Below the pieces are notes generated by a model that was not told the origin of the DNA, searched no databases, and saw only the letters and a list, made by a program, of their open reading frames with translations. A stretch of DNA of 63,151 nt, counting the filler, from Dugesia japonica (lineage: Eukaryota), in NCBI GenBank assembly GCA_001938525.1. It is 6 parts of 6 records of this genome, joined end to end, with 100 filler letters (N's around TTAATTAATTAA, not from the genome) between each part and the next. Parts side by side here need not be neighbours in the genome. Positions count along the whole stretch, not along the records: positions 33,077 to 43,560 come from MQRL01617069.1; 5 more parts are not named here. The stretch is one strand, 5' to 3'. Numbering within the stretch: the first letter of the stretch is position 1; each line of letters begins with the position of its first letter. A program made the translations under genes and the position numbers. This document shows positions 4,561 to 56,549 of this stretch, one piece after another.

Positions 4561-4740
4561 TATACTCGAAAACTTTAGATAAAAAATGAATTGACACGAA
4601 AAAATTATATTTGAAAAGAATAAAATATAAAAAGTAAATTTTCATTAAAATAAAGTTCTTTTGCAATACGATCCTGATTTTCACTAATTTATTTAACCAC
4701 TACATGACACATTCTCTCTGCAACATATGTGGCTATTACT

Positions 4741-8621: not shown

Positions 8622-9457
8622 AGTAGCATTGAGGTGTCTAAATATTGAACTTGAGCTTTTATAGCCTCCATTTAATTGTTCTTCACTTTGAAATGTGATT
8701 AGAATAAAGTTACGCAAACGACGATTGCCAAATATTTACACCTTGTTTTAAAATGAAGAACTATCTTTATTAATAGCAAAAGCAACTATTTCCTGGTTTC
8801 TTATTGGTTACATGGCATTTTGCTAATATAACTCAATGCAGAAAGATCAACTCGTACGCGTCTAACCAATAATTTTGGATCCATTATTTCACATCTAGGT
8901 TCATCATTTAGAGATTCTAAACACATTTCAGAAGATGCTCTTTTCATTCGAATTTGAACATTAACTAGAGAAATCAGATATTTTTCTTGATCCATAAAGT
9001 CAAATTGTATTGATTCACACAGAGAATGATTTCTTTATACTCTTTTTTCTATTTGCTTCTGTTCCATATCCCATTGCAGTAAGACATATATGCTTACTAT
9101 CACCATTATAATTCAGTAAAATTTCAATCAATGCTTTTTGAATATAAGTTCCATTTTCCCCTTCAATTTTGTAAATACTAAATGACAGAATTACATATTT
9201 GAACAAGGTGTGAAACATAGTTTCTGACTTCTCATCCAATTCCTTTCTAGGCTTATCAACTACTTTTACTTGTATAGACAAGAGAGTATCATTCAAATCT
9301 AAATATTCAGTTTTTGAACCATTTATAATAAAAACCACATCATTTTTTAGATCAGATATTGGATTAATTGGAAACACATCTTCAAAGATCCATACTCAAT
9401 AACCGCATATGGAGATGGTTGATCAAAAATACACAATTCAGTTTTTCCGCAAATCAT
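8622..9457 (-). pseudogene. Polinton major capsid protein, disrupted and 3'-truncated, copy 2
   Basis: MICGKTELCIFDQPSP..., FIINGSKTEYLDLNDTLL.I.VKVV, MDQEKYLISLVNVQIRMKR, PKLLVRRVRV, IFGNRRL. Confidence 0.85.
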
Positions 9458-9903
9458 TAATCGAGTATAGTTCCATGTTCTCTCATTCGTTGGTTTATAC
9501 CTGATGACCTTGATTTCTTACGTTTTTTATTTTGTTTTGCAAGTTGTTTTCTATGTTGTTTTGTTATAGTATTAGTTATACTATTGGGTATCTTGCTAGC
9601 CATGTTTGTTGGCAACATGCTTGGTACTTTCGGTATCATATTGGTTACTCCAGACGGTAATGAAGACACTACATTTCTAAGTTCAGCTAATGTATTTTAT
9701 TTTAGGGTTGGTAGTATTTTTCCGTTATTTGCTAGCACATTCTGAGAAATTTTCATACCAAATGAACCAATAAATTAAGGAATTGGCAAAGCATATCTTC
9801 CAATTGTTTGCAACCAACCAGATCCATACTGTTTTCCAATAAAGTATGGCAATTCACCACAAACTTGACCGGTATTAAACAATACTACAATTTCAGGATT
9901 CGT
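9457..9903 (-). pseudogene. Polinton/adintovirus small virion protein with amphipathic helix and basic tail (pVI-/cupiennin-like)
   Basis: Reconstructed (M>T)NPEIVVLFNTGQVCGELPYFIGKQYGSGWLQTIGRYALPIP*FIGSFGMKISQNVLANNGK...KRKKSRSS; lies between penton and MCP; two internal stops. Confidence 0.6.
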
Positions 9904-10950
9904 TTATTTTTCGAAAATGTAATGTTAAATGAGTTTTTATATCTTTTGTAAACGAAATTAGTTGTTCGCTATCATCACGTTTCTAAATTGTATATACGCG
10001 ATGTAGAAATAGGCAAATACGTGAGATTATCAATAATTCTTTGAACCACTTTATCATTTTCCTGTTTATTTAAATAAACTGTTTTCAAAAGAGGAACATT
10101 TACATCACCTACAATGATCGGTTTGACAATACTACTATAGATGAACATTTGATTATTACACTTTAGTAGTTTAGGTTTCTTAATATTCTTGAATATTTTA
10201 CCTGGTACATTGATGTTAGTTTGAATATATTGCGGTGTTTCTAATTTAAGAGTATTTATCAAGATTGAATTGAATGTAATACTTCTAATTTTATATCTTA
10301 TTTCAAATTTCAATAACTGATCAAGCTTTAATGTTAATGATTTAAATAGTTTTGAACAGTTTTTATTAATATATTTATTTAATTGATTTAAATTCTTTAT
10401 GAATAATTCATCCTCAAATCAAAAAAAAGTTAAAGAAACTATAACTAAGTTTTATTCTTTCAATAGGGTCATCGGTTTTAAATGATTGTATGTTAATTGA
10501 AATTTGATGGTCAAAATAATGGTTAATTGTTTTATTTAAATTAAATCGTTTTGCATTCTCCTCACTATCAATTGACAAAACACTCTCTGAACAAACCGTA
10601 CTAGTATAATTACAAAATGTAATGGTATTTCGATTTGACAATATATGGGTATCAACACCACTAAATGTTAGCTGTGGTCTTACATAATATAAACTGATTG
10701 ACTTGCTTTTGTTGTCAATAGTAACAATTATTTCTCGTATTATAAGATGAAATTCTTGATATTGAATCTCGACATTACTATGATACGGAAAAGGAGAATA
10801 TACATATGTGAAATCTATCATGGCTACTTCCCAATTACCTTCCAAGTAAATCGGATTTTGAAGCTCAACATTAAACTTGCTAGCTGTATTTTTCAGGTGA
10901 ATAATAGGACTACTATTACTTGGTAAAAGTGTAAAGAAATTATTTCTCAT
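9893..10950 (-). pseudogene. Polinton minor capsid protein (penton), frameshifted
   Basis: N-terminal FFTLLPSNSS...NTASKFNVELQNPIYLEGNWEVAM; C-terminal MFIYSSIVKPIIVGDVNVPLLKTV and LTLHFRK. Confidence 0.85.
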
Positions 10951-10963
10951 TGTTGATTAAATA

Positions 10964-11308
10964 CTATGCAGATATCCAACTAGGATATTTATATACATGC
11001 CACTTTACATAATATTGTTTATTCTGTTTTGTACCTTTTAGCCTTACAATTTTTTCAATTCTGAATACTGATTTCGGAGGAATCACTTGTAGTTCCTGTT
11101 CATAAAACTTTCCCTGCACAATATTATTCTCATAATCTTTAATGACATACATGACAAGATTCTGACTGGTATTGATTTTAAATATTTGAAACACCTCATC
11201 ACTCCAATAAGTATTAAAATTCTTAATGAATGAAAAAGTCGATACCTTTGAAATTCTAACGTTGTCACCAACTTTATATTTTGGTTTTTTTATTTGCTTT
11301 AAATGCAT
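10964..11308 (-). pseudogene. Polinton retroviral-type integrase, C-terminal region with chromodomain (DDE core missing)
   Basis: PKYKVGDNVRISK..F.K....WSDEVFQI...GKFYEQELQ...FRIEKIV...YYVKW..Y..SWI. Confidence 0.85.
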
Positions 11309-11391
11309 TTATGATATTAAAATTAAAAAATCTATATATTTATTTGTCCTGTGCGCTACTATCCCACTACTCTATATTTATAAGATAAGGA

Positions 11392-11586
11392 CTGCAATCG
11401 GTAATAGACAAATAGGACGATGTTTTAGCAAAAAATGAATTTGATATGGGTGAAGCAGATATTATTCAACATGCTATCAACACGGATAATACCAAACCTA
11501 TCAAGCGAAGACCATATGTTGCACCATATAAATTAAGGGAGGAAGTTAAACGACAAATAAAATAATTAAAAAATAATGAAATAATA
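11392..11586 (+). mobile_element. Gypsy pol fragment (pre-RT region), same family as 33077-38553
   Basis: EFDMGEADIIQHAINTDNTKPIKRRPYVAPYKLREEVKRQI versus EFDMGGTNIIKHIIDTSNARPIKQRPYVAPYALRPEIKRQV at about 35380-35500. Confidence 0.8.
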
Positions 11587-16791: not shown

Positions 16792-18950
16792 CTAGAATCT
16801 GTATCTCTTTAACCATTTGATTCTTCTAAATCTGTAACCTTGAAGAGTTTCTAAACTAATTTGGTGAGGTGTTAGAAATTCAGTCTTTTTATAAGAACCT
16901 TCATAGAGTAAATCATTCTTCTTCCGTTTTTGAGGGTCTTTCCTTACTAGCACGTCTTCACCTATTTCGAATTCGCAACTAACATGGCTATTTTCTTGAT
17001 TTATCATTGTCTTTAATACTCGTTTAATATTATCGTAAGCCTTAGTTATAATTTCATTCTCTCCAAAGTTGTGTTTCTTATTTGTGTGAATATTTATCTT
17101 CCTTCTATAAATGATTTCCATTGGTGAGAATCGCGTTGACTTTGATACAGTACAATTGAATGCAAACTCTACTCTAGGAAGAAGCTTATCCCACGATCTT
17201 TCCTCCTCTCTTGCTTTCATTGAAGTCACTATCAGGTCTCGAACTGTTATGATTGCTCATTCAGGTAATCCATTAGATTTATGTTTATATGGAGATGTAA
17301 AAATTCATTAAATATTAAACTTATTAGCTAGATTTTGTAATGATTTCCCTTCAAATACTTTACCACGGTCTAACAATTTTCTGTGGCTTTCCAAATTTAA
17401 AAATCCAGTGGTTTAGTAGAGTGATTTTTACAGCGATTTCATTTTGATTGTTTGTTGCAGTAAAACTAATCATTTTACTAAATTGATCATTGATAACAAT
17501 TATATATCTTTTATATGATCGGCCAATATCTATATATGCTATATACATAACGATTTGTTCCATAAGATTACTAACTTCGCGATTGGAATAAATTTCTCTT
17601 GAACCTTTTCACCACTTGTTTTCCTGCGCATGAAAAATTTACATTGTTGTATTATATTTTGAATATCTTTATCATATTTGCTAAGAAAAAATAATCTGAA
17701 GCATATTTTATAGTTTTATATTCCAACATGATATAAATCTTTATGTACTTTATTAAAAAAATCGTTTATTTTATTTAGTGATACTGCAATTTTACGAATC
17801 CCATCACGTTCAATGCTTATCAAATTGTTTTCTACAAATAAATTATTCAAGTATTTGCTGTAAATTTATTCGTTTGGATCTTTAAGAATCTCTTTGTCTT
17901 TTACGGAGAGGTCTTTATCACTTTAATAAACAATTTGTTCCTCTTAAATCTGTTAATATAGCTATAGAAATTGCCTAAAGAATCATTTAAGACACTCAAA
18001 TATTTGACTTTAGACATCTAGACATGTTCAGTTTGACATTGAGAACAATAACTTAAAAGAATACGAGACATGCTATCTACATTTGTGTGTTGCTCACCTT
18101 TCCTATATATGAGCTCAAAATTATATTCTGCCAATCCGGTTATAGAGGTTTAAAATTGTGGTGTGATTAGTTTATGGGAAGCTTAATAAATTCCAATGCC
18201 TTGTAATTGGTTCGTGCTACAAAATTTTTACCATATAAATAATGACCAAAGTGCCTGATGAATTCATTTAACGCCAGCAATTCTTTACGTGTCACGCAAT
18301 AACCTTTTCATGAGCCGTAAAAAATTATCACTTCACGACCGTTTTGAATTTGGCTCAATATTGGACTGATACCACTAAAGCTAGCATCAGTATCCAATAT
18401 ATATTGGTTGCTTGAATCCGGAAAACCTAATATTGAGCAGTACGTAAAGGTTGCTTGATATCGTTAAAGCTTGTTTTGCACTCTTCAGTCCATTCAATTT
18501 CTCGTTGATGGCCATCCGTTGCAGCATAAAATTGGTTTTGCAAGTAACTAAAAATTCTTAACAAACTTCCTGTAATAGTTTGCCATGCTTAAATAGAAAC
18601 GCAATTGCTTAGTACATTTTGATGTTTCTGCTTTTGCAATTTCTAAGACCTACTCTGAATAAGGCCTCAATTTGTTTTTGCTAACTGTATGGCTCAAATA
18701 AACAATTCATTTTGATATAGTTTAAATTTATTGGGATTGATCTTGAGACCAAAATTCTGAATTCTTTGAAATACATTTTCAAGTATTTTATTGTGTTTTG
18801 ATCGACTTTTTGCAAATATTAACAACTTATCAATATATACAACTACACCTTTAAATAAAATCCAATCCAAAATTGTATGCATCAATTTTTGAAACGTACC
18901 TAGAGCAGTTGATAACTAAAATGGCATACGATTGTAGCAATATTTTACTA
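16792..18950 (-). mobile_element. Degenerate Ty3/Gypsy pol (RT-RH-IN)
   Basis: YNRMPF, TFQKLM, VVVYIDK (YxDD), LDTDAS, CVTRKELLA, HTNVD, FGKPQKI, WDKLLPRVEFAFN, YEGSY in Gypsy order. Confidence 0.85.
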
Positions 18951-22807: not shown

Positions 22808-24120
22808 ACCAAGATATGGGGATCCCAATTTGATTTGGTTGATGTATTTATGGGTCCAAGAAAATTATGGCAAATATCTCTAACACGTGTTTCTTTGTCT
22901 AGAGGTAAATTATTATGATATTCACAATAACCATAAATAAAATATCATCTCTACCAGCTTCAATTAGATGTCGTATCCATAATAACAACCAATATTTATA
23001 CTCTTCTGGGGAATTGAGACTCTCAGCAAGTCTTACCTGAATTTCTAACCTATCAAGGATCAGTTCGAGTTTAGTGGCAACACTGAACGTTGTGGAACTT
23101 GAGATAATTATTAATCAATCAGAAAATACAGAAATCAGTAGCAACTACTCGTTATAAATTGATTCACTAGCCTGCATTAAAGCTAATGGCTTGAATATTA
23201 GATTTTTGCTCGATAATTTTGAAATCGACCAAAATTCTGATTTATTAGAATTGTTGAATACTTCTTGCCAGATTCCGAATGTCTTGTTAAAATAAAATGA
23301 AGATCCTCCATCAAAAGTCAAGCTGATATTGCCTTCAGTTGATATAGAAAGATTTTTAACAAGATTTTTGTCTCCATCATCTATTGAGCCGCAATATTAA
23401 TAATAGTAATCAATAATGTAGTAAATGCAAACCGGTTAAAAGATGCTGAAAAGATTCTTTCAAAAAAACCACAAAGGGGGTTATTGACCACACATAAAGA
23501 GTAGCCTTGATTGTAACAGCCAATAGATATCTACCGTCACAAACAAGATGTGTTAATCCACTATCCAATGAGAAAGGAGCTTGTATTCGACCACCTTTCA
23601 AATAAAATGTATGCAAAAACCCACAAACATCTCCGACAAATAGTTTATCTCTATTAAAACAAAAAAGGAAAATTGGAAAGAAAATTCTCAAAAATATACT
23701 TAAAATGAGCCATTGCACTAATCTGTTTGGTTTGAGTAATTTCCCATAATTTCTGATCGTTGTTATTTACACATATTTTATAGATTTTAGAATCATTTGA
23801 GTTGTTATTTGAAGTTTTACTACCACTACCATTTTCATTAATAATTTTAACAACAAAATGATCATTTTCCCCTGGCAACAAACACAACAAAGAGAAATTG
23901 TGTTTAAGAATATTTTGAGTTAACATTAATCTTTTTTCAGTAATTGATCCTAAAATAAATTTATTATTAATAAAAAACAAAAAAATGTTTGTAAAAATAA
24001 TTTTGTTTACGAAGTTCCAAAAAATTATATTTGAAAAATGAGTAAAAGTCGAATTCACTTTTAACTAATAATTTCGTATTGAACTTGTTACCAGATCAGT
24101 ATGGTCAAAGCAAAAATTTC
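22808..24120 (-). CDS. HIRA: HIRA histone chaperone, C-terminal Hira domain exons (partial; short introns)
   Basis: GFLHTFYLKGGRIQAPFSL...YLLAVTIKATLYVWSI; GSSFYFNKTFGIWQ; LEIQVRLAESLNSPEEYKYWLLLWIRHLIEA; LEICHNFLGP. Confidence 0.8.
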
Positions 24121-25759: not shown

Positions 25760-26220
25760 ATGACGAAATGTAAGAAAATTATAGTTGATCAGATCTAAAG
25801 TATTCCTAAAGTGAAGAAAGATAAACGATCAAAAATGCGTATAATAAAAAGGGTGGAAAGAGGAAACAAAGTAATCAGTTGAATGTGTTTAAGAAACTTG
25901 CAAACCTGTATGGTAAGAAAATGAAGAACACAAACGGAAAATGGACATCGTTATAAACAATTATGGGTAAGTTATATTATTAAAGAATAAAATGAAAATT
26001 CAACAAAGTATTCCATTTTTTACATCGTTAATTAAATCTCAAAGATCAGCGAGAATGCAAATTTTGAAATCATTTCCAACGTTTGTTTTGGATGATTTAA
26101 TAGAAATTATTATAAATATTGTTCGCGAAAATGTAAATGGGAGCAATGCAAGAAAGGAAGTATTGAAAAAACATAAATGAACTCTATTAACACGATAGTC
26201 AAGCGTTTTAATAAAATCAT
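25760..26220 (+). pseudogene. Two small Polinton genes after the ATPase: a Lys/Arg-rich ORF and a core-like protein (25992-26180)
   Basis: Same order and sequence as 38745-39234 and 54654-55125 (SIPFFT.LIKS...ILxSFP...DDL.EIIINIVRENV). Confidence 0.65.
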
Positions 26221-27470
26221 ACGTAAACATTATTTTATTAAATGATGATATTAATTTAAATGCTCTGAATATAATAATAGTATTTACAGCTTTTTTCTTT
26301 TAATGTGACTTTCAAATATTTGCACTAATGTTTGATTAATTAAATTATATCACATTATACAATAGATTAAATGTTAGAAGCCTTAGTTTTTTTTTATCTA
26401 GTTTTATTACAAATCTTTACTTTTAGGTATTTACCATAGAATTCAAAGAAGGATTTTTAGTTTAGCTATTTTCAAGATTTCTTCACAATATTTAAAAAAA
26501 TATTCTTTTATATAATTTGTATATTTTAAAAAACCTTTTCAATTGTTATCTTAATTTAATAATTTATTAATATATTTAATAAATGTCATCATAAAAATTC
26601 TTTCATTATTTATTTAGTTCATTTTAAAATTTTATATATTTTAAAATTAAACTCCATGTTAATGATGAAACAATAATAATTATAATAATAATAATAATTA
26701 TAATAATAATAATAATAATATTAAATGAATAGATGAATAATGATACATTCCAAGAATCAAAAATATTTTTTGGTTATGAAAATTTATTTTCTTAAGAAAG
26801 CAATCACTATTGAATGTTATGACATGGTTATATTTAAAAATTGTAAATTCGGATTCCTTATAAAATATCTTAGTGGAAATTAAATTGAAAGATTGAACAA
26901 TAATTTATTGATTGCTAAGCCAAGATTGCTAAAATTTGATCAAGAATCATTTTTCATCAAGAAAGTCAACAAATTAGGTATATATAATGAAAACGGAAAG
27001 CGGATTAGACAATTACCTGATGAACTTCATGCTCGAATAAAAATAAAATTATTATGCTTAGAAAGTGATCAAGATTAATTTCTTCAATCTTTCATATCAA
27101 TAAAAATGAGAATTTGCAAAATAGAATTTAAGAGTGATGATGAAAACTAGACGATGAATATTTATTCACTTTCTGATTTATTGTTTTATTCACTAATAAA
27201 TAAATCTGCTTTCATTTAAATTTTTTTTTTCTAATTTGATTTTATAAAATTATTTATACTTTTTCGAGTAATAATATATATATATATATATATATAATCT
27301 TTGTATTTTATTTTAATATCTCAATTATTATTGTTTCATTTTAATTTCTTTATTATTTATAGAAGAGAATATCCAAAAAAACAGGCTCCATTAATAGAGG
27401 AGTTGGTCGAATCCATTCATTAAATGAGATATAGTTTGATTATTCTCAAGAGGCCTAGAAATCGAATGAT

Positions 27471-28095
27471 ATGAGTAAAGTGAGAGAAATTATTTACAGA
27501 TTCCTAAAAAGGGAAAGTTTCAATGATGCAGAAGTTAACAAAATAGAAGTGATAGGAAAATTTGAAAAGAAACAAAACGTAAGAGTTTCGTATGATAAGA
27601 TGCAAGGGAGACCTAGCATTTCACTGATGACCAATGGTGACCAGTTTGATTGTGTGTTAGATACAGGAGCAAGAATCAATGTAATTAGCATGAAAGGATT
27701 CAGTAGAGAAACAATGTTAGAAAAAAGCGAAGAACGATTGAATTGCGCCAATAACAGCTCATTGGATACAATTGGAAAGATACTTGTGGAAGCTGTAGTT
27801 TCAGAGGTGTGCAAGGAAGTAAGATTTATGTTAGTAGAGAAACTAATAGCAGATCTAATTGGTGGAGTGGAATTTCAAAATATATTTTGAAATCATCTTC
27901 AAAAAAAGTGCAGGATAGACACAATCATCGAGAAAGATTTGTTTGCAATATCGAGGTAAATTTGGAAGGCAGATACAGACGGGTGAACGATTGAGACATG
28001 CAATGAAGATTTTAGAAATTAACAAAGATCATAGATTGACTGCGATTATTCAGAATAATGAAGATGTATCCATGGCGGATAAATGGAACATTAGA
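27471..28095 (+). mobile_element. Gypsy protease region fragment
   Basis: CVLDTGARINVIS, CANNS.L.TIG, DLIGGVEF; ends at ADKWNI at the start of RT. Confidence 0.75.
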
Positions 28096-29425: not shown

Positions 29426-29722
29426 AAATTTGTCAATTTTTAAATGAATTTCGAAATTAACTGAATCAAAATACCAGCAGCAACAAATGAATTTTTTCTG
29501 AGTTTAAACAAGATAAAATTCAATGATTGCCATTCAATTTGCTTGGTTAAAAATGCATTGAAACATCATAAAAGCGGAAAATAATAGAGACAAATTTTAA
29601 AACACTGAAAATATATTATTATTATTTATAGTTAAATATTTAAGATGGCAACTAAATATAATTAAAGTAAAAGAGATATTTAATAAATTATGTTGTTATG
29701 TTGAGTACGCAAAATATATTTT

Positions 29723-30714
29723 CTATAATAACGAATTTTTAATCATTTCATCTTCAACAAGATCTTTAATTTGACGTCTAATTGAAGGATCTTTAGCAAA
29801 ACAAGAATCAATAAATGCTTTGATGTTCGGATCGAATTTATTAGGTAAATTGTATTCAATGTTGCCAGTTTCTATTATTTTCTGTTGTGCCTCCGGCTGG
29901 CTCATCGAAGGATACGGCCTTTTACCTTTACAAATAAAATTAAACAAAATTACCCATTATTATCTCAATACCAGTGACGATTTTAACTAATACAGCACCA
30001 AACGACCACACATCACACGGGAATCCATATTCCCTGCTGTCAAGTATTTCAGGAGCCATATATCTCACTTTGATGTAACAAAATACATCCTGTTCATCCT
30101 TTTTCATAATTGAAGAAGTTACTCTATTTTCGTGATAGTTTGATAAATTAAAATTCGACAATTTCAGATTATTGTTAACACCAACAAGAATGCTTAATGC
30201 TAGAAACAATCAATTATTTCTCCTTGATCAATAAACATTTACGATTCAAAACTCGATAAACTATTTTTAAGTCATGTAAGAAAAATAAACCCTCTAAAAT
30301 CTGTGCTGCCCACTTAAGAATTTGTGTCAAATCAAATTCTTTATTCTTCAAATAATAACTCAATGTTCCCTGAAAAATGAAATCCATAAATACATTTTAC
30401 AAATAATTTTTGATTACTCCAATCATATTCTCCATAGCAACATAGAATGAATCATCATCTACGTAAACATCATTTAATTGGATAAATCTTGAATGCGATT
30501 TTGTGAATAAGAATATTTCCAATTCCTTCAACACCCAATCGTCTTTTTTCCAATTTTTTGAAATAATATTATATTTCTTGATTAATATATCTTCTTTTGC
30601 ATTATTAGTAGCGAAGTAAATTTCCCAATTTTTCTGTTTGAAAATAGATTTTCCTTTCTCTATACCTTGAAATCTTAATGGAAAATAATAGCACTGAAAA
30701 ATAAAGCTAAACAA
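29723..30714 (-). CDS. Protein kinase-fold gene with short introns; probable pseudokinase
   Basis: ILIKKY, LKELEI, FYVAMEN, QILEGLFFLH, YMAPEIL, CDVWSFG, DPSIR; catalytic loop reads YRVLNPLSILV and DFG reads NFN. Confidence 0.75.
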
Positions 30715-30889
30715 GGAAACAAAATGTAATTATTTGTATTCATGTATTATTAAAATGACGACTCATAATTTACGAGTTATATATCATTTATAATATGATA
30801 TAAAGTTTTAAATTTGTTAATATTAAATGATATTATTTGTTGAAATAATTCATTATTAGTAAACAGTTTTTGTTTAAATAAATAATTAG

Positions 30890-32290
30890 GGAAAGTGTTT
30901 AATTTTAGAGTAATTGAGTCAAAATTTTCATCGGTCTGGTTGAATTTGGTTCATTTTTTGACGATTTGGTTGAATTTTTCCTTGGTAAATTAGTCAATTT
31001 CGAGTCAGCTTTTGGGAGATTTTGCCAATTATTTACTTGTATTTTTAGTTTGGGTAATTTTTGGTTGAATTTGGTTACATATTTATTCTGGGTGGTTAGT
31101 TTGGATGATTTAGTCAATTATTATTCGGTTTGGATAATATTGGTTAATTATTTGTTCAGAATGGTCAATTATTTCCACGATAATGGTTAGCTTGGTCAAT
31201 TTTTGGGTGATTTAGTTAAATCTTTTTTTGAATATGGTCATTTTTGGATAATCAGGGTCAATTATTTCCCCACTGTGCTCAGATTTTGGGGGATTTGGTT
31301 AATTATTTTGTCAACATTAATACACTTGGTCAGTTATTTACTCAAGATGGTTGATTCTGGGTCGTAATGGTCAATTATTTATTCACGTGGGTAGTTTTTT
31401 GATGATTTTGGGTAATAATTTTCTTGGTATGGATTATTTAGTCAATTATTTGATCAGATTGGGTAATTTTAGGTATATTTGGTTGACAATTTCATCGGGA
31501 TTATCAGTTTGGGTTGGATTTTACGGAAAATCATTTAAAAAAGTCGAATTTGTTTAAATTTTCAAATTTTATACATTCTTTGATCAATTTTTATGGGAAT
31601 CAAGAGCATATTAAATTTTGAAAATTTTCGAAAAAAATGTTTTCGAAATTTTTACATCAATCGATGCGGAATTCGATGGAGATTATTTTTCACAAAAAGA
31701 ATTTTTCAAAAATATTTTTTCTTATCTTTACATAAAATAACCATGTATATTAAATGGAGAATTTTCCGCTTTTTCCAAATATTTAAACCTTAAATCACCA
31801 AACTTTATCCGGGATGAAATAATTGAAGTTTTGTCTCGAAAAATCGCAAATTTTGAATTTTGGCACTCAATTTTCTCTGCGTTACATAACAACTATGGAC
31901 TCATATTATGTCATTTTACTCAGGATGAAAAAGTGACTGTACAAAGTTAAAATATCGTCTAGGCAAAAATGCTTCCTAACGAAGATTTACAGCTTTCCTT
32001 CGGGATTTGGTAACTTTTTTCGAAAGTAACAAAAGATTTTTAAAACTTGTCGAAATTAGTAATATTCGATAGAGAATTTTTCACTGATCACGAGAAACCA
32101 CCTAAAATTATCAAACCTTATAGAAACAAAGTTATATTGAAAAAACATGTACTTAATTAACAATTATATTAGTTGCACTTCGAGTTTTGTAAAGGTTTTT
32201 TTACCCGATTTTTACTATCAAAGTATCTATTAGATAGAGAATTTTAGAATGAGTAAGAAAACATGGTCAAAAGTCAATAAACATTTACCT
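30890..32290 (+). repeat. G/T-skewed degenerate tandem repeat plus conserved block; same family as 5150-6560
   Basis: Recurrent TTGGT(C/T)AATTATTT units followed by shared unique blocks. Confidence 0.7.
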
Positions 32291-32976
32291 TAATAATATT
32301 AAAGTATTCTCCGAGGAATATTAACATTAATAAAAACATAATTACTTGGTCGTTGGTTTCGATTGTCAAAAACAAATTTTGTCTTGTTTTAAAATTTTTT
32401 ATTTCTCAATAATTAAAATTAAAGTAAAACATACTTACTTGGTCTTACAATAACCGATAGTCATTTTAGCAAATATTTTAGTAACATTTTGATAAATTAT
32501 TTTTCTACAATGTTCTTAAGTAAAAATTTGTAATTTTTCGCTATACNNNNNNNNNNNNNNNNNNNNNNNTAGCACTGAAAAATAAAGCTAAACAAGGAAA
32601 CAAAATGTAATTATTTGTATTCATGTATTATTAAAATGACGACTCATAATTTACGAGTTATATATCATTTATAATATGATATAAAGTTTTAAATTTGTTA
32701 ATATTAAATGATATTATTTGTTGAAATAATTCATTATTAGTAAACAGTTTTTGTTTAAATAAATAATTAGGGAAAGTGTTTAATTTTAGAGTAATTGAGT
32801 CAAAATTTTCATCGGTCTGGTTGAATTTGGTTCATTTTTTGACGATTTGGTTGAATTTTTCCTTGGTAAATTAGTCAATTTCGAGTCAGCTTTTGGGAGA
32901 TTTTGCCAATTATTTACTTGTATTTTTAGTTTGGGTAATTTTTGGTTGAATTTGGTTACATATTTATTCTGGGTGG

Positions 32977-33076
32977 NNNNNNNNNNNNNNNNNNNNNNNN
33001 NNNNNNNNNNNNNNNNNNNNTTAATTAATTAANNNNNNNNNNNNNNNNNNNNNNNNNNNNNNNNNNNNNNNNNNNN
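32977..33076. other. Artificial contig spacer
   Basis: 44 N + TTAATTAATTAA + 44 N. Confidence 0.95.
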
Positions 33077-34424
33077 GAAGCATTAGGATTAGTCGAAAAA
33101 GGAGTGGATACTAAGTGTGGAGTAGCAGTGACAGTAACAAATTATAATGGTCTATATCTATCAACAAAGTAAATTAAAGATGCCAGACCAGAGTTAGATA
33201 AATTGGACGTAAAAATAGCTACATATTTCAACAACAAAATTGATTTCCTGTATCATGAAATATTGAGACAAGTAGATAAAATATATACGGGTACCATGAT
33301 GGATTATTGTAAAGTTAAATGAGAGTTGTTGAGAGCAAAAATGGCAATGGTAGTTACAAATCCCGATTTGGTTGCACCACTTCTATTTGAGGAAAAAGGA
33401 ACGTTAGGAAGGATAGTGGGATAAACGTTAGTGAGCTTTAAATGTAAACCAGTAGCTGTTACGCTTACAGATCATGAAAAATGTACTAATGAACTACCGG
33501 TAATTTATAAGGGAGAAAAAGTATTTTTGTTCCCAATAACAAAAATTCTAACAGATAAAAATTATCAACCAAAAGTGATTGAAAAATGTAGTAATATTCT
33601 TGATCCCATGTACAATTTAACTAACGAGGTATGGATCACAGTATCAGATAGAAAGACAGCACAAACTCTACTGATGATGGAAATGATAGAGCTCAGTAGA
33701 ACAACAGAATTAGAAATAATTGATAATATGGAAAATCGTGGTATTTATACAATAAATGATATCGAAAAAGCAAGGAAACACATGCTTTTCAAAGAGAAAA
33801 AATAATATCGATAATGGTTGATAAAGTATCTAGAGGGAGTAATGGAGATGATGTAAATTTTGAATCACTATTACACGCAGATCATTTTAAAAAAGCAATG
33901 CGTAACTTTTTAGATAGATTTTTAGGGAGAATGCAATGGTTTGGCAATATATTCTCATGTATTTTATTTGGGTGGTATGTCTTAACATTTTTAAAATTAG
34001 TGGGTCATCAAATACTTTCTTTAAGACAACTACATGCAGTTTTTGGTTATACATGGAAACTAGGAGCATGTTTCTGCCCATTTATTGCAAAACACATGAT
34101 TGTACAAAACCATAGTGAAAAAATAAAGAACCTAGAAAAACACCGAGGTGTATATACGATAAACATGGATGATGAGCAAGAGCTTAAAAAATTAACTAAT
34201 GATAGATCATCAGAAACAGAATATAAACCATATAAACAAGAAAATATCGAATTAGAACANNNNNNNNNNNNNNNNNNNNNNNNNNNNNNNNNNNNNNNNN
34301 NNNNNNNNNAACTAATGATAGATCATCAGAAACAGAATATAAACCATATAAACAAGAAAATATCGAATTAGAACAGATAAAAACAGATGAGTCAGCACAA
34401 TATAAATATCAAAAGAATTACTCA
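33077..34424 (+). pseudogene. Env-like class III fusion glycoprotein (chuvirus G / herpes gB-like), C-terminal half with TM region, part of a Gypsy polyprotein
   Basis: YFNNKIDFLY...C...NPDLVAPLL..KGTLGRIVG*TL..FKCKPV.V......C.NELPV.Y....FLFP.TKIL...C...P.Y; then TM block WFGNIFSCILFGWYVLTFLK...LHAVFGYTWKL.A. Three in-frame stops and one A-run frameshift near 33800. Confidence 0.75.
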
Positions 34425-37400
34425 ATGTCAGCCATAGATTCGGACAATAATAGACCCACAACCGATATTATAATAAATGGAATTAGTATATCTTCATTAA
34501 TAGATACAGGAGCAGTATGCTCAATAATAAAAGAGTCATGGTTAAGTAAAGCTCAAAGACAAAAAATAAAAAATTATAAGCCAGAAGGTATAAAATCATT
34601 CACAGGCCATATAATAAAAACAAAAGGCATAATTGAATGTACGGTTTCAATTGGACAAGAAATTGTTACACATCCATTTAGAGTAATGAAAAATGGAACA
34701 CAGAATTGTATTTTAGGTATGGATTTTCTGGCAAGATTAAAAGGATACGTCATTGATTTGCAAGATAGCACAGTGAAAATGGTAACATCATTACCAGTAC
34801 TGGATGGAGGTCATTTGATATGTGCAACAGAACTAATAACAGCGGAACGCTGTAGTGAATGTATAATACCTGTACATACAGAAGTTTAAAATTACAAATC
34901 ATATATTGTTGAACCAAATGAGAAATTGATAGAGAAACATAATTTATCAATGATGCCCGGATGTGTAGAACCAAGAAAAGGAATAATACCAATGAGAATA
35001 GCCAATTATAATAATTACGACGTGATACTTCAAAAAAACACAAGATTAGGAAAATTGTTTGAAAATAGAAACGAATATGAAATATATGAAATTTTAGTTG
35101 AAGACCAACAAAAGAAAGTGAATTTACAGAAGCAGAATAAACAAACCCCGAATACGAAATCAACAAAAAAGAGTTGTCAACTAAATAAGCATGAACTATT
35201 TGAGCTTATAATGGAAAAACAAGTGAAAATTAACAAAATAATTGACAAAGAACTAAAAAAGCAGAAGCAAACAAAATATTACGAGAAAGCAAAAATAACA
35301 AAAACAGATCTTACAATAAATCAACGACAACAACTACAGAAATTATTAGACAAATATGAAGATGCATTCACTAAACAGGAATTTGATATGGGAGGAACAA
35401 ATATTATAAAACATATAATCGATACAAGTAATGCAAGACCAATAAAGCAACGACCATATGTAGCACCATATGCGTTAAGACCAGAAATCAAAAGACAAGT
35501 AGCGGAACAAAAAGCGAATGGAATCATACGAGATAGTTTTTCTCAATGNNNNNNNNNNNNAGTACCAGTTAAAAAGAAAGACGGTGAGATTAGAATGTGT
35601 ATTGATTATAGAAAACTTAATGAAGTCACAAAAAAAGATACACACCCATTTCCAAAAATACATGAACAATTCAATAAGCTAATGAAAGCAAAATACTTTG
35701 CAAGTTTGGATGCTAACAAAGGTTATAATGTAATTCCAGTACAAGAAGAGGATCGAGAGAAAACAGCATTCTGTACTGATGATGGGTTATATGAATTTGT
35801 TAGATTACCGTTTGGGTTATGCAATGCACCAGATACATTCCAGAGATTAATGAACACAGTATTAACAGGTATTGAACATGTAGTTGTGTATATGGATGAT
35901 ATACTCATAGCATCTGAAACATTTGAACAACATTTGAGTAATATAGAAAATGTATTGTCCAGAATTAGAAAAGCGAATATTAAATTAAAACCGACAAAAT
36001 GTAAATGGGCAGAGGAAAGTGTTTTATTTCTCGGACGTATTGTATCATCAAGAGGATAAGAGCCAAATCCAGAAAATGTAAAAGCGGTCCAAGATTTTAC
36101 AGTACTAAAAAGTGTAAAACAATTACGAGGATTTAATAAATTAGTGGGATATTATCGTCGATTCATACAAGATTTTGCAAATATAGCAGCACCATTGGTA
36201 GAATTAACAAAAGGTTTGAAAACAAAAGGGGAAAGTAAAAATGTCATGATTGTAGAACAATTAGATGAAAAATCAAAGAAGCCTCAGAAAAAATGGGGCC
36301 CAAAACAACAAGAAGCCTTTGATATATTAAAACAACAATTGCTAACAGCTCCAATATTAAGATATCCTGATTTTAAAAAGCAATTCATAGTAATGACAGA
36401 TGCAAGTGAATACGCTATGGGAGCAGTGCTCCGTCAGGAAGACGAAAAAAATAAAGATTATGTAATTGCATATGCCAGTAGAATGTTGAAAGGAGCCGAG
36501 ACAAGGTATTCAACAATTGGAAAAGAATATTAAGCTATCATATTTGCGTTAAAGCAGTTTAGACCATTTATATTTGGAAAGGAAATATTTATCCGAACAG
36601 ATCATAAACCCTTAGAGAGTCTATGGAAAAATAAAGACGCGTCTAGTAGAATACTGAAGTAGGCAATGAAAATTCAAGATATGAGTGTACGTATTATATA
36701 CAAGCTAAGTAGAGCGAATAAAAATGCCGATGCGTTATCAAGAATTCCAGAAGTAAATATATTGGAAATGATGTCAATTGTTATGACAGGAGCAAACCCA
36801 AAACATTTTTGGATGAGCAAAATAAACATAAAAAAATACAGGAGATTAAAAAGATGATGCTTCAGGAAAAGAATATTAAATATAAAATGTATAAGAATTT
36901 GCTTATGTACAATAATTTAGGGAAAAATCTGATAATTGTACCAGACTCTCTAAAACAATTATTTTTATTACAATACCATGATGGAGCGCTCGGAGGACAC
37001 CTGTCTAGTAGAAAAACCACGTCAAGATTACTACAAAAATACTATTGGGATAATATCAAAGAGGATGTCAAGAAGTGGTGTCAAGCATGTAGTATCTTTG
37101 CCACAAGAAAAAATACAGAAACAAAAACCAAAGTTCCACTGCAACCAATGCCAATACCCAGCTCACCAATGGAAACATGTGCAATGGATTTTTTTGCAAA
37201 TTACCAACAACTATAAAAGGCAATAAACATATATTAGTATTCAATGGCTATTTTACAAAGTGGACAGAGGCATTTCCTAAAAAAGATGAAACAGCAGATA
37301 CAGTAGCAAAGTTATTAGTTGAAAAGATAATATACAAATATGGAGCGCCAAGAANNNNNNNNNNNNNNNNNNNNNNNNNNNNNNNNNNNNNNNNNNNNNN

Positions 37401-38030
37401 NNNNTTTGATATTAAAAAAATAAATACGACGGCGTATCACCCACAAACTGATGGGTTAGTTGAAAGATTTAACAGTACACTATGTAATAGATTGGCAGTT
37501 TTCGTAAATAAACATCAAAATGATTGGAATCTATTCATTAAACCAACATTTTTCATGCATAACACAACTGAGAACGAAGCCACGGGATATTCACCATTTT
37601 ATCTTATGTATCTAAGACAAAATCATAAGCCAATAGATATAACATTTGAGCCAATTGTGTCACAATATATGGATAATACAGATTACGTCACGAAAATTCA
37701 AGAAAGATTACAAGAAGTATATAAACAAGCCAATCTAAAAGTAAAATTCAAACAGGAACAATATAAAGACTATTATGACAGAAAAGCTAAAGAACATAAT
37801 TTTAAAGTAGGTGATAAAGTAAGGATAAAGACACCAGTTACACAAAAAGGATTGACAAATAAATTAGCAAGACCATACAAAGGTCCATATGAAGTAGTAA
37901 AAACAACTCCCACAAATTTACACATATTAAAAAACAAAAAAGATGATCCCATAATTGTGGAAGTTAACCGATGCAAAATAACAGAAGCAGAGATTGTACC
38001 TGAAAAACAACACAAATATAATCTTAGATC
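34425..38030 (+). mobile_element. pol: Ty3/Gypsy pol: PR - dUTPase-like spacer - RT - RNase H - integrase (few stops and frameshifts)
   Basis: LIDTGA/ILGMDF, RMCIDYRKLN, LPFGLCNAP, YMDD, MTDAS, RTDHKPL, NADALSR, H-x6-H...CQAC zinc finger, YHPQTDGLVERFN, YKGPY, YNLRS. Confidence 0.95.
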
Positions 38031-38553
38031 ATTATCACAAAATACATTACCACTTTTTGCACTAACTTTATTAACATTAATGACAATAAGTGAAGCTCAA
38101 TTAGAAGAAAAACATGGTTCTACTTACATAACAAGAGTTATTTATTCGAAAAAAATTATACTCAGAGCACCGGAAGATAAGTAGAATATAACACATGTCT
38201 CTGGGGATATAAAAGATAGACCAATTGCATACACCCCGGACATAGATCCTGTTTATATCGAACAAGAATATAGTTTTGTAAGGATGCCATTGAAATTTAG
38301 TAATGGGATGGGTCAGATAGAGATAAAAGGGTTAGAAGCTAACACGAAATAAAGAATCTGGATACGTGTGCGAATAGGTAAATACGGGGTAGTAGAACAG
38401 CATATATTTACTACACTGCCTAAGAAACGAGAACAAGAGAAGTTAAGCGCAACAAAGTTACAAATAAAGACACAATTTATGACTATCTTGACAAAACAAG
38501 AAAAGTTGAGTACAACCAAACCACAAACAGAAACAAGTATTATTGCATTTTAG
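38031..38553 (+). pseudogene. In-frame extension after integrase: signal-peptide-like stretch, FN3-like domain, Thr/Lys-rich tail
   Basis: LPLFALTLLTLMTISEA|Q; the same frame read through two stops gives ...QIEIKGLEANTK*RIWIRVRIGKYG...HIFTTLP. Confidence 0.55.
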
Positions 38554-38744
38554 TATTTATAAAAAACCTTATTAATTTACTGTTTGTAAAAATCTTTTTA
38601 ATTATAATTATAATTAATTATAATAAAAAAACTAATTATTAATTAATTATAACTAATTATAAAAAAAATAAATAAATAAAAAAAAATAATTAAACAATAA
38701 AACATTTATTAAAATAACATTTAATTCTCAAAATATTCAACCAT

Positions 38745-39234
38745 CTTCAGAAAAAGAAGAAACAATCGCATAAGAAACATCGTTTAAATAAAAGGAAACA
38801 AATGAAAAGGTTTTAAAAACTTGCAAAAAGGAATGGAAAGAAGCTAAAAATGATGAACAGAAAGAAATATATTATTATAAACAAAGAAATGGTGTGTATT
38901 ATATTTATAAATAAAGATGAAATTACAAAGAAGCATTCCGTTTTTACAACTTTGATTAAATCATCAAAACCTTTTGGAATGCGAATTTTGCAATCATTCC
39001 CACCATATTTTATAGATGATTTACTTGAAATTATTATAAATATTGTTCGTGAAAATGTAGATTTGAGTGCAGCCAAAATGAAAACAGAAAAAACATAAAA
39101 TAACTTTATTAACGCTTGTAAACACAAAACATAGAAATACAATTAGACGAGTAATGAATACTCAAGAAGGTGGCTTTATAGCAGCATTACTACCAATTGC
39201 ATTAGCTGCATTAGGCCTAACTCATTTCAAATAA
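38745..39234 (+). pseudogene. Polinton small genes: basic ORF tail and core-like protein ending QEGG-FIAALLPIALAALG
   Basis: Homologous to 25760-26220 and 54654-55125; retains the GG motif and hydrophobic C-terminal peptide. Confidence 0.7.
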
Positions 39235-50321: not shown

Positions 50322-53300
50322 TTGTTGTTAGTTGGCAAAAGTATTATAATTAAATATTTTTCCCAGACCATCGGTTGAGAAACACTGATTTATGTGACCC
50401 GTATGTATGTTGTGATTGATGCGACCTGTATGAACATTATGAATGAATGATGTAATAAATTTCTCGAACAGCTGCATCACTTATATTCCCGTATTTAAGA
50501 ATGCAATTGGTTTGAAATTGGCACTTTTTATTAGAATATCATTTTATGGAATTAGTTTTAGTTCTGGATATTAATATGGCGACCACGTTAAATACAAGTG
50601 AACTTATTTGATTAATTCCGCAGCCAAAGTTGTTCTCCGCAAATATGGATATAGAAGAATTCGTAGTGGAAATAAGAAATTATTTTGATTTAATTCAAAT
50701 TAATCCAAATCAAAGAAATATATTAATTCGAGCTTTCGCGGTCGAAGATGCAAGAAGACAATTAGAGAAGCTCACTGATTCTAATAATTATGAAGAAAAT
50801 CTACGAAGATTATTTGGTAAATTCAGTAATCTTGCAAAGACTTACAAAATGCGTTACAATATCGAAAATGGAATAATTCAATCGAAGAATATATCGAACA
50901 AGTTGAAAAGAATGTGAAGAAAGTAATGCGACACAAATTGACGTCGACGAAACTTATCGAATTTTTATTAAAGTAATATTTGGATGATAAAACAATGATA
51001 GAAGAAGTGGCTGGATTTGTGTATACTGAATCTCTTCTCAAATAAAAATCAGATAAAGAGCAAAATGAAGAAAATTAAGATCAACGAGGAACGACTCCAG
51101 TGAAATATATAAAAGAAATTTTAAAATCGGTTGAGGAAAGAAATCGAAATACAGATATTTCAATTCTCAATAAACCAAGTTATGCCTAAGTTACAAGACT
51201 AAAATACAATGCGTATCCATATCATCAAAGTAATGTTCAAAGTGAGATGATTGGAAAAATAAATCACGGTCAAGAATCAAGAAATCAATCTAAAATGAAA
51301 GACAATTTCAATGAAGACCAATCTATACAAAATCAATGAATTCTGACAATTATTAGAAAACTATTCGATGTTATGAATGCCAAGAATTCGGCCATATCAG
51401 AAGAAAATTTCAGAACTTCCGTTGCACAACGTGTCAAAGTCGAGGACATTTAAGTCGAATTTTTTTTTGAATCAAGAAAAAATCACAGAAAAGAATATTT
51501 CCAATGGAAAAATTATAATAATTATAGATCTCAGAATTATGAGGAAAGGAGATTTTCCAATCGGTGTTATCGAGTTGTTGCACTGGATGATGTCTGTTTT
51601 CAAACTGGTGATATTACGGAAAACGAAGGAAAAATTATTGGAGATGATACTGTGAATGAATGTGACTGTATGTCTGTTCATACTTTATGTTTGAAAGAAT
51701 GTTCTGAAAATTATTTAGATTTTTTTGTTAATTCCAATAATTCTTTTGATAGTTTTAATAATTATTTGGATATAATGATTACAGATTTAAATTTTGAAAA
51801 ATATAAAAATATTACTTTAAATGTTAATAGAAACAGCGTAGTTATTGGAAATAAGTTAGATGAAGGGCCGTTTTATTGTTTATATTTAAATTAAGTTATT
51901 TATGCGTGTTTGTTTGATACAGGAGCAAAAATTAGCGTTAAAAGTTTAAAGGTATTTAAAGAAATAAATAGAGTTTTAGAATCAATAGAAAAATCTTTGA
52001 AAATATTTTGCGCAAATGGAAATGCTTTGAAAATATTTGGACACTGTTTTCTAAATTTAAGATATAAAGGCATAAGTATCCGAAATTATAAAAGGAATAG
52101 ATATTTTCGAAAAATTAAATATAAGCTTAGTTAATATGAATGCATTAATTTCTGGTTAAGATATGAAACATATAAAGTTATGTAATTTAGAAGATAAATA
52201 TACAAAGGAAATTGCAGATTTTTAATAGACAGGAAGCTTTAAACTCATAAAAACATTATAGGAAAAACTCATCCATTATATAAAATAATAATGAATTTAG
52301 CAATATTTTATGGCAAATAAATGAGATATAGGAAAAACGAATATCTTAAAGCCTCTGATTATGACAAATTGTGAACCAATAGTTGTACCTCATAAACGAT
52401 AGCCAATACATTATGTTGAGAAAATTAAGGAAATTATTCAGAATTAGGAGGAAAATAAAATAATATCGAAATGCGAATCCCCATGGAACTCCACAATTGT
52501 ATGTGTTCAAAAAAGAATTCAGAATGTGCTAAGATTTTTGGTTGTAAAATAAAAATGCAATTAGACCTGCATTCCATTTTCCGAATGTGAATGAAATGAT
52601 AGATTCATTACATAGAGTTTAGTTATTCTCATCAATAGATCTTGGAAATGCATATTACCAAGTTGAATTCAAAAATGAAAACGGCATTCTCTACAAAATA
52701 TGGACAAGATCATTTTAATGTGATGCCATTTAAAATTGCCGCAGAGCCATCTACATTTCAGAAATTAATGACGATTATTATAGGAGATATGAATTGGAAA
52801 GAAAGTTTGGTCAACCTGGATGATGATTTAAGTTTTTTCAAAAACAATTGATGACCATATTTCAATTTTACACAAGCTATTTACTAGGATATCTAAATCT
52901 GATTTACGAATTAGTCCTGATAAGCGTAAATTTCTAGTATCAAAAATAAAATATTTAGGTCACGTAATTAATACTGACCGAATACTGACTGAAGTGGAAT
53001 CCATAAAGACATTTAAAAAACTGTGTTGCGTTAAACACTTCAGAAACCTTTTGGGTCTAACTAATTACTATAGTAAATTCATTGAAGGATATTCTCAGCT
53101 AGCAAAACCACTAGAATTTTTATTAAGTAAGAAAGAAAAGAAAATCATTTGGACATCTGAAAGTGAAATAGCATTTGAGAAATTGAAAAAGAAAATGTCA
53201 AATGCTCCTATATTATCTCCAGATTTTAGTCGTAAATTTATCCTGAATACGGATGCAGGTTTTGACAGTCTTGGTGCTGTATTGTCGTAAAAAGATAATT

Positions 53301-53930
53301 CTGGAAGAGAAAGAGTCATTGCTTACAGTTCAAAAAGTAGTTTAAACATGAAGTTGAATATTGCATTACTAGAAAAGAATTACTTTCAGTATTTCACTTT
53401 ACTTAACACTTTAAGTATTATTTATACGGAAAACAATTTGTATTGCGAACAGATAACTTTTATGTTAACAACAAGAAAACATATTACAGCTCAATTTCGA
53501 AATTAGATAAAAAAAAGTATACAGGAAAAAAGTATACTATAGTATATTTGCAATTATCGATCAGTTTAGAAAACATATTTTACTAAAAGCAGTAAAAAAT
53601 CAAGATGATAAAACGTTAATAAAGATTTTAAGAGAATGCTGGTTACTGAAGTTTGGCTTACCAAGATCGATTTATGTTTACCGTGGAAGATGTTTTTTAT
53701 CCTCATATTACAAAGATTTGGCAAAAAAAATTAATTTTAAAATAGAATATTTTAGTCTATACCACCATCAAGCAAACGGTCAAGTAGAACACAATTTCGG
53801 ACGATTACGGATTATATATTGCTGGGTTGAAGATAAATTATTGAAAAATTCGGAAGAATGTTTACCTCAAATAGAATTTACAGTGAATTCGACAATTTAT
53901 ATCCAAAAAAAATTGAATTTAATCAAATAA
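50322..53930 (+). mobile_element. Degenerate Ty3/Gypsy element: LTR-like region, PBS, gag with zinc knuckles, PR, RT, RH, partial IN
   Basis: PBS at 50577; CYECQEFGH and CTTCQSRGH; FDTGA; SPWNS; NLDD; NTDAG; YHHQANGQVE. The LTR start is approximate. Confidence 0.85.
50577..50587 (+). promoter_or_regulatory. Primer binding site TGGCGACCACG (complementary to the 3' end of a tRNA-Arg type)
   Basis: TGG start immediately upstream of gag; sequence recalled as matching tRNA-Arg(TCG/CCG) 3' ends. Confidence 0.6.
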
Positions 53931-54384: not shown

Positions 54385-55125
54385 AACCCGCAATTTAAAT
54401 GTAAAATACTTGGTTCTATTCAAAAATCCTAGAGATCAAACTGCTGTTGATTTTCTAGCAAGACAAAAATATCCAAATAACAAACAATTTCTGATTGAAT
54501 CATTTAAAGATACAACAGAAAATTCACACGGATATTTATTTCTTGACTTTACACAACAATGTCCAGATGACTGTAGAGTGACAAAAGACATATTCAATAC
54601 AAATGGTATCACAGTATATAAACAAAATAGGTAATTTTCTTAATATTCTAAAAATGACAAAATTAAAGAAATTTGTAGTTGATCAAGTAACTGATGATGT
54701 TGTGAAACGCCAAAAAATATCTTTTATGAAGAAAATATATCAAAAAAAGAGAAAACAGTCGCATAAGAAACATAAGAAAAAACGAGTAAATAAAAGAAAG
54801 CAAATGCATATGTTTAAAAACTTACAAAAAGGAGTGAAAAGAAACTAAGATTGATGAACAGAAAATAGATATTATTGTAAACAAATAAATGGTATGTATT
54901 ATTTTACTAAATAAAGATTAAATTAAAGAAGTATTCCGTTTTTTACCACATTAATTAAATCATCAAAACCTTTTAGAATGAGAATTTTGCAATCATTCCC
55001 ACCATATATTAAAGATGATTTACTTGAAATTATTATAAATATTGTTCGTGATAATGTAGAATTGAGTGGGACCAAAAGGAAAGCATTGAAAAAACATAAA
55101 AACGAATATCAGCGCTTGTAAATAC
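54385..55125 (+). pseudogene. Polinton ATPase C-terminus (to 54634), basic ORF (54654-54848) and core-like gene fragment
   Basis: RNLNVKYLVLFKNPRD...HGYLFLDFTQQCPDD; syntenic with 25320-26220. Confidence 0.8.
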
Positions 55126-56549
55126 AATAATTTCTCCATATTTAGCATTAAAAAGCTTGTCGAACAGTTATTTTGTTTAGCTATCTAAAATCTAAACACA
55201 ATTAAATATATTTTTTACCTTTCTTCCATACACTCACGAATGGTGTATTCCTCGGTGATTTATCCCCAATTTTAATTGAAACAGCATCTGAGTGGATAAC
55301 AGTGACCATCGAGGGAACTGACACCACCTCTTGGTGAATTGAAACACCACCCATTGTTTGGATTCATCTTCACTAAATACGAATGCAATACCTACAGATA
55401 CGTTGGAAAAATCAAATTTTTGATTGATCCACGACTATGAATAAGGCCTACAGACCATAGAACAGCGGGTCCTCAAACTCGTTAAGAAAAATGAGATATG
55501 AGACAGTTCCCTCATCTTTTCTCGTTTGAGCCATTTTGGAGCTCTCACAAGACATTTCCTAATAGTTCCATCTCAAAGATAATATACAACAAAAAAAAAT
55601 CATAATAATAATTAAGAAGATGATCATGGCCTAGTGAATGTCACTATCATCTAATGGTGAAATAGTTGGTAATGTTTAAGTAATAAATTATCAATTACAA
55701 AGTAGGTGAACAAGATATTTAAAACCTTCACTAAAATTATATATTTGATTTTTGAATTCATTAAAATCTAAATAACTTCCCTTTACTACATGAACTATTA
55801 ATTATAAATTTCTAATTAATAAGGGAAAATTTCGTTAAATCATAAAAAAAATGCAAAAACAATATTTTTTGCCAAGATACTAAATTAAACCAGACTGCAT
55901 GAACCGATAAAATAATCAAATAATAGAAAATGTCATAGGAAAAACAAAAATATTTCATGTGATAACCGAACTCCCGTTTAACTACACATCTTGTTTCTCA
56001 TAATATTCTGTACAGCAAATCATCATTTCTCAGTCCCCTCATTTCATCCATAAAACACTTACTTCTTGTTTCACCATTTGATCCCATTTTATTGTAACGA
56101 ACTAAATTTTTCGCAATTCCTTTTTATTTTCTCAGTAGAAACACGGAATCGTTGTTTTGCAATTCATTCTCTTTTTTTCTCAATAATATTTAGCATATTT
56201 GTCTATTGGTAGCCCGCTCGTCGCCTTTCTGTGGAAGATACTTAGATTATAATTGTTAAATCATAATAATAAACAAAACAAAATTTATCAATTTACTTTG
56301 CAGTTTATCCTTCAGGTCCATTTGTCCAAATAGCAATTTTACTGCACAAATTAGTGAGTTCATATGCATTGGCCAATGAGAAAAAAGAAGGTATACTAAA
56401 ATTTAGTGTAAATATCGTTCAATTTTGGACATCAAATCATCATAAATTTTTAACCAAAATTAGCAATTAGAATTATCAACTGAAATTTTTAAAGAGTAAA
56501 AATTTAATTGATTTTTTATTTTTATTTTCAACCACGGTTTCCGACTTGG

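Follow-up and report, generated by a model that had tools for sequence, protein, structure and literature searches.

The window analysed here, 63,151 nucleotides of Dugesia japonica DNA (assembly GCA_001938525.1) joined from six parts of six records, holds between positions 33077 and 38553, in the part taken from record MQRL01617069.1, what is very probably the decayed remnant, cut at its 5' end, of a Ty3/Gypsy retrotransposon present in many copies. A glycoprotein (G) of the chuvirus/herpes gB type stands in it directly ahead of protease (PR), reverse transcriptase (RT), RNase H (RH) and integrase (IN). The stretch likely represents a gag-env-pol element of a flatworm; from intact copies, one membrane-threaded polyprotein would be expected. 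G and PR are fused in frame in natural homologues, two of which carry Gag signatures ahead of G, while the copy in the window is dead.

Domain organization and identity of G and Pol

Domains were placed by three-frame translation combined with a Pfam profile search. They are arranged as follows.

32977-33076 (no strand): gap (N44, 12-nt spacer, N44) directly upstream of the element
33077-33802 (+): class III fusogen ectodomain, C-terminal part, with a long central helix and a beta region; 3 premature stops (PF24664, BDV_G, Cys pattern, Foldseek)
33760-34257 (+): G membrane-proximal region, transmembrane (TM) helix, second hydrophobic Cys-containing segment and cytoplasmic tail, in a frame different from that of 33077-33802 (PF24664, hydropathy)
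34194-34375 (no strand): uncollapsed overlap, with assembly gap 34260-34309 between identical 66-nt copies (exact duplicate; bridging contig)
34464-34736 (+): aspartic protease, DTG at 34503 (PF13975 E 4.8e-11, PF00077 E 2e-8)
35568-36038 (+): reverse transcriptase, YMDD, Ty3/Gypsy type (PF00078 E 1.5e-35; Ty3 RT E 6e-42)
36294-36752 (+): RNase H (PF17919 E 4.2e-28, PF17917 E 4.8e-17)
36938-38028 (+): integrase with H2C2 zinc domain, core and GPY-type C-terminus; one frameshift, one N gap (PF17921 E 5.3e-18; rve_3 and MLVIN_C weak)
38044-38097 (+): hydrophobic segment predicted to resemble a signal peptide, continuing the integrase frame (hydropathy 2.2 over 11 residues)
38098-38436 (+): all-beta domain with FN3-like GL-x-x-x-T motif, weakly predicted immunoglobulin (Ig)/FN3-like sandwich; 2 premature stops (motif, model, fold matches below threshold)
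38432-38553 (+): stalk rich in Thr and Ser that contains a direct repeat at 63-nt spacing and runs to a stop; no TM helix in this copy

A preliminary description of this DNA had seen a Cys-patterned glycoprotein with a TM block before the protease, a view borne out by the profile search. PF24664 (Monjiviricetes_fusion) scores above cut-off in both G frames, on 33077-33802 (profile positions 261-494 of 653, E 2.2e-36) and, in the other frame, on 33760-34257 (positions 491-636, E 4.2e-13), placing G in a class III fusogen family, and hydropathy gives one TM helix at about 33946-34005. The G coding sequence in the window (33077-34257) corresponds to the C-terminal ~60% of a chuvirus-G/gB-type fusogen. 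The BDV_G profile also matches 33077-33802 (E 2.9e-4), and five Cys of the ectodomain are invariant across nine aligned sequences. The model of the G ectodomain (pLDDT 55) features a long central helix followed by beta strands. Compared to viral models with Foldseek, a check proposed in the preliminary description, it yielded 21 matches at E<=1e-3, among them Borna G and herpes gB, with a chu-like glycoprotein ranking first (1.7e-8); compared to the PDB, all 36 matches listed are herpes gB, at E 6.6e-3 or above. PDB sequence searches gave no fusogen match. On this evidence, mainly the Pfam matches, G is assigned to the class III fusogens of chu-like/gB type.

The Pol domains follow the Gypsy order PR-RT-RH-IN with Gypsy-type Pfam models, and there is no Gag between G and PR, both as described earlier. 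In a PDB sequence comparison, which contained no BEL/Pao RT, the RT is closest to that of Ty3 (E 6e-42), followed by the next match at 1e-20, foamy virus at 3e-15 and HIV at 1e-7. The integrase core is 44-48% identical (tblastn) to those of three homologues (P0008, P0015 and P0025). Pol can thus be classed as Ty3/Gypsy (Metaviridae) type by its domain order and by Ty3 as the best solved relative of its RT.

The copy is dead because it carries nine premature stops (33170, 33320, 33422, 34887, 36057, 36531, 36660, 38182 and 38350) and three frameshifts (at about 33790-33805, 36720-36750 and 37190-37215). The uninterrupted frame proposed earlier therefore holds for the stretch from G tail to protease but not elsewhere. 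For at least five of the nine stop codons most contig depth reads otherwise, among the matches listed, and much of the decay is therefore copy-specific. Position 33077 adjoins the gap 32977-33076, so that gag, any 5' long terminal repeat (LTR) and the first ~260 G profile positions are absent: tblastn of nine homologues gave no match to the G amino terminus upstream of 33077 in the window, no gag was found in the window, where the element starts at the gap inside G, and no paired long repeat surrounds the element there. LTRs, primer-binding site (PBS) and target-site duplication were not seen, the 5' end being lost at the gap.

The junction of G and protease and its homologues

The assembly gap 34260-34309 lies between two exact copies of one sequence (34194-34259 and 34310-34375), a duplication that had been recognised before but counted as 65 instead of 66 nt. 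Translation runs in the G-tail frame through the left copy and in the protease frame through the right one, and the two readings share a register. Of the window's 34 N runs, six have flanks that overlap exactly by at least 8 nt, and uncollapsed overlaps therefore recur in this assembly. The TM anchor and the protease catalytic motif, 572 nt apart as assembled, are separated by 152 codons when the gap and one duplicate are removed, inside the range of 128-389 codons measured in homologues (12 rows, two of them near-identical).

The junction was also sought in independent copies, as the preliminary description had proposed. A 1,096-nt contig from a public run (run X9, record 25) aligns to 33951-34127 and to 34434-34741; the two parts are 188 letters apart in the contig and 306 in the window. 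These 188 letters are 2 short of the window's collapsed 190, so that the contig establishes the adjacency of G and PR, not their frame. Three larger runs place 3,801-5,247 contig pieces per run on 33077-35540, covering all 30 bins, and the largest class is 90-95% alike; the element thus belongs to a diverged multi-copy family.

A homologue search with the G-tail frame among 1.84 billion representative sequences led to 23 proteins. Thirteen of them extend at least 150 residues beyond G, each with a protease match in that part (weakest E 0.008 in a search of the 23 sequences), while the sequences of the other 10 end at most 32 residues past G. Single open reading frames (ORFs) code for G-PR-RT-RH-IN in P0008 and P0015 and for G-PR-RT-RH in P0014. 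The nearest G homologue is P0029 (49% identity), with which the window G pairs in a 12-row tree at only 85/82 support. Other homologous-protein searches retained 3 of 1,592 candidates with the G ectodomain as query, none of 297 with the G-tail frame and none of 53 with the integrase C-terminus and extension start. A hydrophobic segment just before G is found in P0008, P0009, P0015 and P0029, and a TM helix follows G. The motif W-I-x3-GGW, which we take to be Bcl-2 BH2, lies ahead of G in P0004 and in P0029, where it precedes the signal segment; P0023 has a weak Pfam Bcl-2 match.

Several homologues have additional domains. Within 4,844 residues, P0025 combines G and Pol with ankyrin repeats and several repeats of protease-like sequence; 7 PF13975 stretches occur in it, some of them past integrase. 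Tandem protease-like domains between G and RT, together with ankyrin and C2H2 domains, were observed in P0025, P0018, P0008, P0004 and P0009. The P0015 polyprotein (HBK71150.1) is filed as a hypothetical protein of a Flavobacteriaceae metagenome-assembled genome and is likely eukaryotic DNA in a bacterial bin.

The position of the junction at an assembly gap would suit a chance juxtaposition or a misassembly of a chuvirus-like endogenous G fragment with an unrelated Gypsy pol. The exact 66-nt overlap across the gap and the independent bridging contig speak against this, and the same homologues match both window G and window Pol, in order; the single-ORF homologues refute it, making such an origin extremely improbable. 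The G-PR junction is thus judged natural from these sequence comparisons. The proposal that a class III fusogen is fused in frame to Gypsy Pol stands, on PF24664, on the Foldseek matches and on the single-ORF homologues.

The preliminary description interpreted this arrangement as Env-Pol, with Gag, if any, lying upstream. The second part was well founded: Gag signatures are present N-terminal to G in two homologues, Retrotrans_gag in P0009 and a zf-CCHC zinc knuckle in P0018. An Env-Pol lineage having no Gag between or before Env and Pol would agree with a window that lacks gag and with a G that is not near-identical to those of the six published Schmidtea families (9-17 of 29 residues by eye in the sole overlapping stretch). 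The window is however cut at a gap inside G, Gag signatures do lie ahead of G in homologues, and the order Gag-Env-Pol is already in print (PMC13524379, PMC6431247). A lineage of this kind is very unlikely, and the architecture is best read as Gag-Env-Pol.

The same gene order could alternatively yield Gag, Env and Pol in differing amounts via spliced or frameshifted RNAs, in which case Pol would not normally be tethered through Env. A 1:1:1 ratio of Gag, Env and Pol is unusual among retroelements, which counts for this alternative. Moreover, PMC13524379 allowed gaps of up to 2000 nt between ENV and POL and, in its accessible text, does not state one frame for all elements. Against it, G and PR share one ORF in all 13 informative homologues, and Burro is described as one ORF of ~4,900 aa (PMC6431247). 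No RNA joint is listed in three RNA runs, whose cover is far too thin to tell: they provided 19, 298 and 19 reads from 10.5-13.6 million records, most less than 90% alike with a partial fit and none on 38069-38692, and are uninformative for expression, strand and splicing. Separate production of the three proteins appears unlikely, though it keeps a better standing than an Env-Pol lineage.

The post-integrase extension and a proposed membrane threading

The range 33077-38553 given for the element also holds an extension that was not mentioned before. The frame continues past the end of integrase (37981-38550): the signal-peptide-like segment is followed by some 110 residues that are predicted to form beta strands and include an FN3-like motif, and then by the Thr-rich stalk, which contains the 63-nt repeat. 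Contigs of run X2 jump back from 38534-38540 to 38450-38453, so that other copies appear to carry further 63-nt repeat units. In all three homologues that reach beyond integrase (P0008, P0015 and P0025), integrase is followed by a hydrophobic segment, then by an ectodomain-like stretch and further on by a TM-like helix; the FN3-like motif is present in two of the three. Their extensions resemble one another above shuffled sequences (P0008 and P0025, 1/1000; P0008 and P0015, 3/1000).

The extension gave no Pfam match and no PDB sequence match. The model of the beta domain is all-beta (pLDDT 37); fold searches with it led to cytokine-receptor domains (VIA, best Z 5.2) and to FN3 (Foldseek top match, E 0.078), both below threshold. 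The post-integrase domain is thus weakly predicted to be an Ig/FN3-like sandwich and to be a candidate attachment protein. No paper was found that describes a fibronectin domain on such elements, a point that subscription papers or the figures and GitHub data of PMC13524379 may cover; the word 'fibronectin' occurs neither in the main text of PMC13524379 nor in the accessible text of PMC6431247. This predicted surface protein is the only part of the element that looks undescribed. As a signal-peptide plus beta-sandwich module with positional counterparts in three long homologues, it offers a concrete and testable candidate for an attachment role.

A membrane-tethered Pol, as suggested in the preliminary description, is plausible once Gag is added in front. 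The Gag part of the chain would remain cytosolic, while an internal signal sequence before G would direct G into the lumen of the endoplasmic reticulum and be cleaved by the signal peptidase of the host. Through the TM helix of G the chain would come back to the cytosol, leaving Pol hanging on the G tail, and the second signal sequence, past integrase, would export the Ig/FN3-like, Thr-rich domain, which in relatives would end with a TM helix. When chains become crowded at budding, the element's own protease would set RT and IN free, and G would drive fusion into further host cells.

Several observations weigh against this reading of the element as a whole. The G model is poor (pLDDT 55) and partial, with no PDB match at E 1e-3, and a wide structural search with it returned generic long helices only. 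Gag, LTRs and PBS are outside the window, so that the 5' half is deduced from homologues at 32-49% identity. A single contig was seen bridging G and PR. The window extension compared to those of P0008, P0015 and P0025 does not rise above shuffles (355-996 of 1000 reached the score).

The two surface modules might also form a two-protein entry machine in one polyprotein: ahead of Pol the gB-type fusogen, and past integrase a membrane protein with a signal peptide, a head of Ig/FN3-like type, a stalk rich in Thr and a TM helix, which would be the receptor-binding partner that gB otherwise lacks. In that case both ends of Pol would stay fixed to the membrane until the protease cuts it free, in a flavivirus-like polytopic strategy. 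This idea is tentative and rather doubtful. The entry of gB-type retroelements without gD/gH/gL is called unknown in section 11 of PMC13524379.

Neighbouring sequence and comparison with known elements

Another repeat family starts ~200 nt past the element (38747-39127, 54740-55127 and 25868-26191; 83% and 72% alike) and has very high summed contig depth. A frame near 39165-39225 contains a GGFIAALL-type motif, presumably that of Polinton/adenovirus core proteins. Decayed retroelement remnants (RT, RH and IN pieces and a protease) are found at 52307-53789 (+), 16849-18942 (-), 11320-11586 (+) and 27459-27887 (+). Several decayed ORFs at 8900-11310 (-), which we assume to be Polinton-like, gave no Pfam match except a weak chromodomain (E 0.01). 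Host-gene-like exons code for HIRA (23413-23766, -; PF07569, E 3e-7) and for a protein kinase (29700-30729, -; PF00069, E 6e-4, with further kinase motifs). A 407-nt sequence is present twice at 100% identity (30689-31095 and 32570-32976), and the second copy, shortly before the element, has an N gap on either side; it is probably an assembly duplicate.

The gene order of the element is not new. A study of 2019 (PMC6431247) described planarian Burro elements in which env lies in frame after BCL2 and before PR and matches fusion glycoproteins of mononegaviruses, and presented them as the first example of env placed between gag and pol. PMC13524379 reports gB-type ENV in GAG-ENV-POL order in Ty3/gypsy elements of Nematoda, Bryozoa and Platyhelminthes. 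These reports contradict both the earlier suggestion of a possibly undescribed lineage and the statement that chuvirus-like glycoproteins are known from BEL/Pao elements and endogenous viral elements but not N-terminal to Gypsy Pol. The window copy adds another decayed member to a large family.

The six Schmidtea mediterranea families of PMC13524379 (Smed_errantivirus_1-6), given there with 1-215 intact copies, share with the element the Ty3/gypsy Pol, the gB-type ENV before POL and the compact G-PR spacing. A gB-type ENV within 2 kb upstream of a Ty3/gypsy POL, as in the GAG-ENV-POL errantiviruses of that study, is present in the window. Compared by eye to the published ENV stretches, the window's G gives over its first 29 residues 17 matches with Smed_3 and 15, 12, 11, 11 and 9 with the other five, so that the sequences are apparently related but not the same, 29 residues being too short to decide. 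This match and a low GC content are the grounds on which the element is taken to be likely that of a flatworm. In contrast to those families the window copy is dead and truncated, and in this stretch it is near-identical to none of the six. The words 'polyprotein' and 'accessory' do not occur in the main text of PMC13524379.

Burro/GYPSM1 (PMC6431247) likewise has env in frame between gag and pol, and in the window, too, env is in frame before PR. Its BCL2-like motif before env compares with the W-I-x3-GGW motif of P0029 and P0004, whose position before the P0029 signal segment is as the Burro description would predict. The window G joins a single protease directly. Burro is of giant size with BIR, MATH and ankyrin domains, which are not seen in the window, where the 5' half is missing. 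A dUTPase-like domain between PR and RT, found in Burro by HHpred, had no Pfam match at 34770-35090.

Non-canonical nematode endogenous retroviruses, for which PMC13524379 credits Sacco et al. 2022, have ENV and POL flipped in a Metaviridae element as here and differ in their nematode hosts. Chuvirus G, a glycoprotein of the same family, is also carried by BEL/Pao elements of mosquitoes (Dezordi et al., as cited in PMC13524379); their Pol is of BEL/Pao type and that of the window element of Ty3/Gypsy type.

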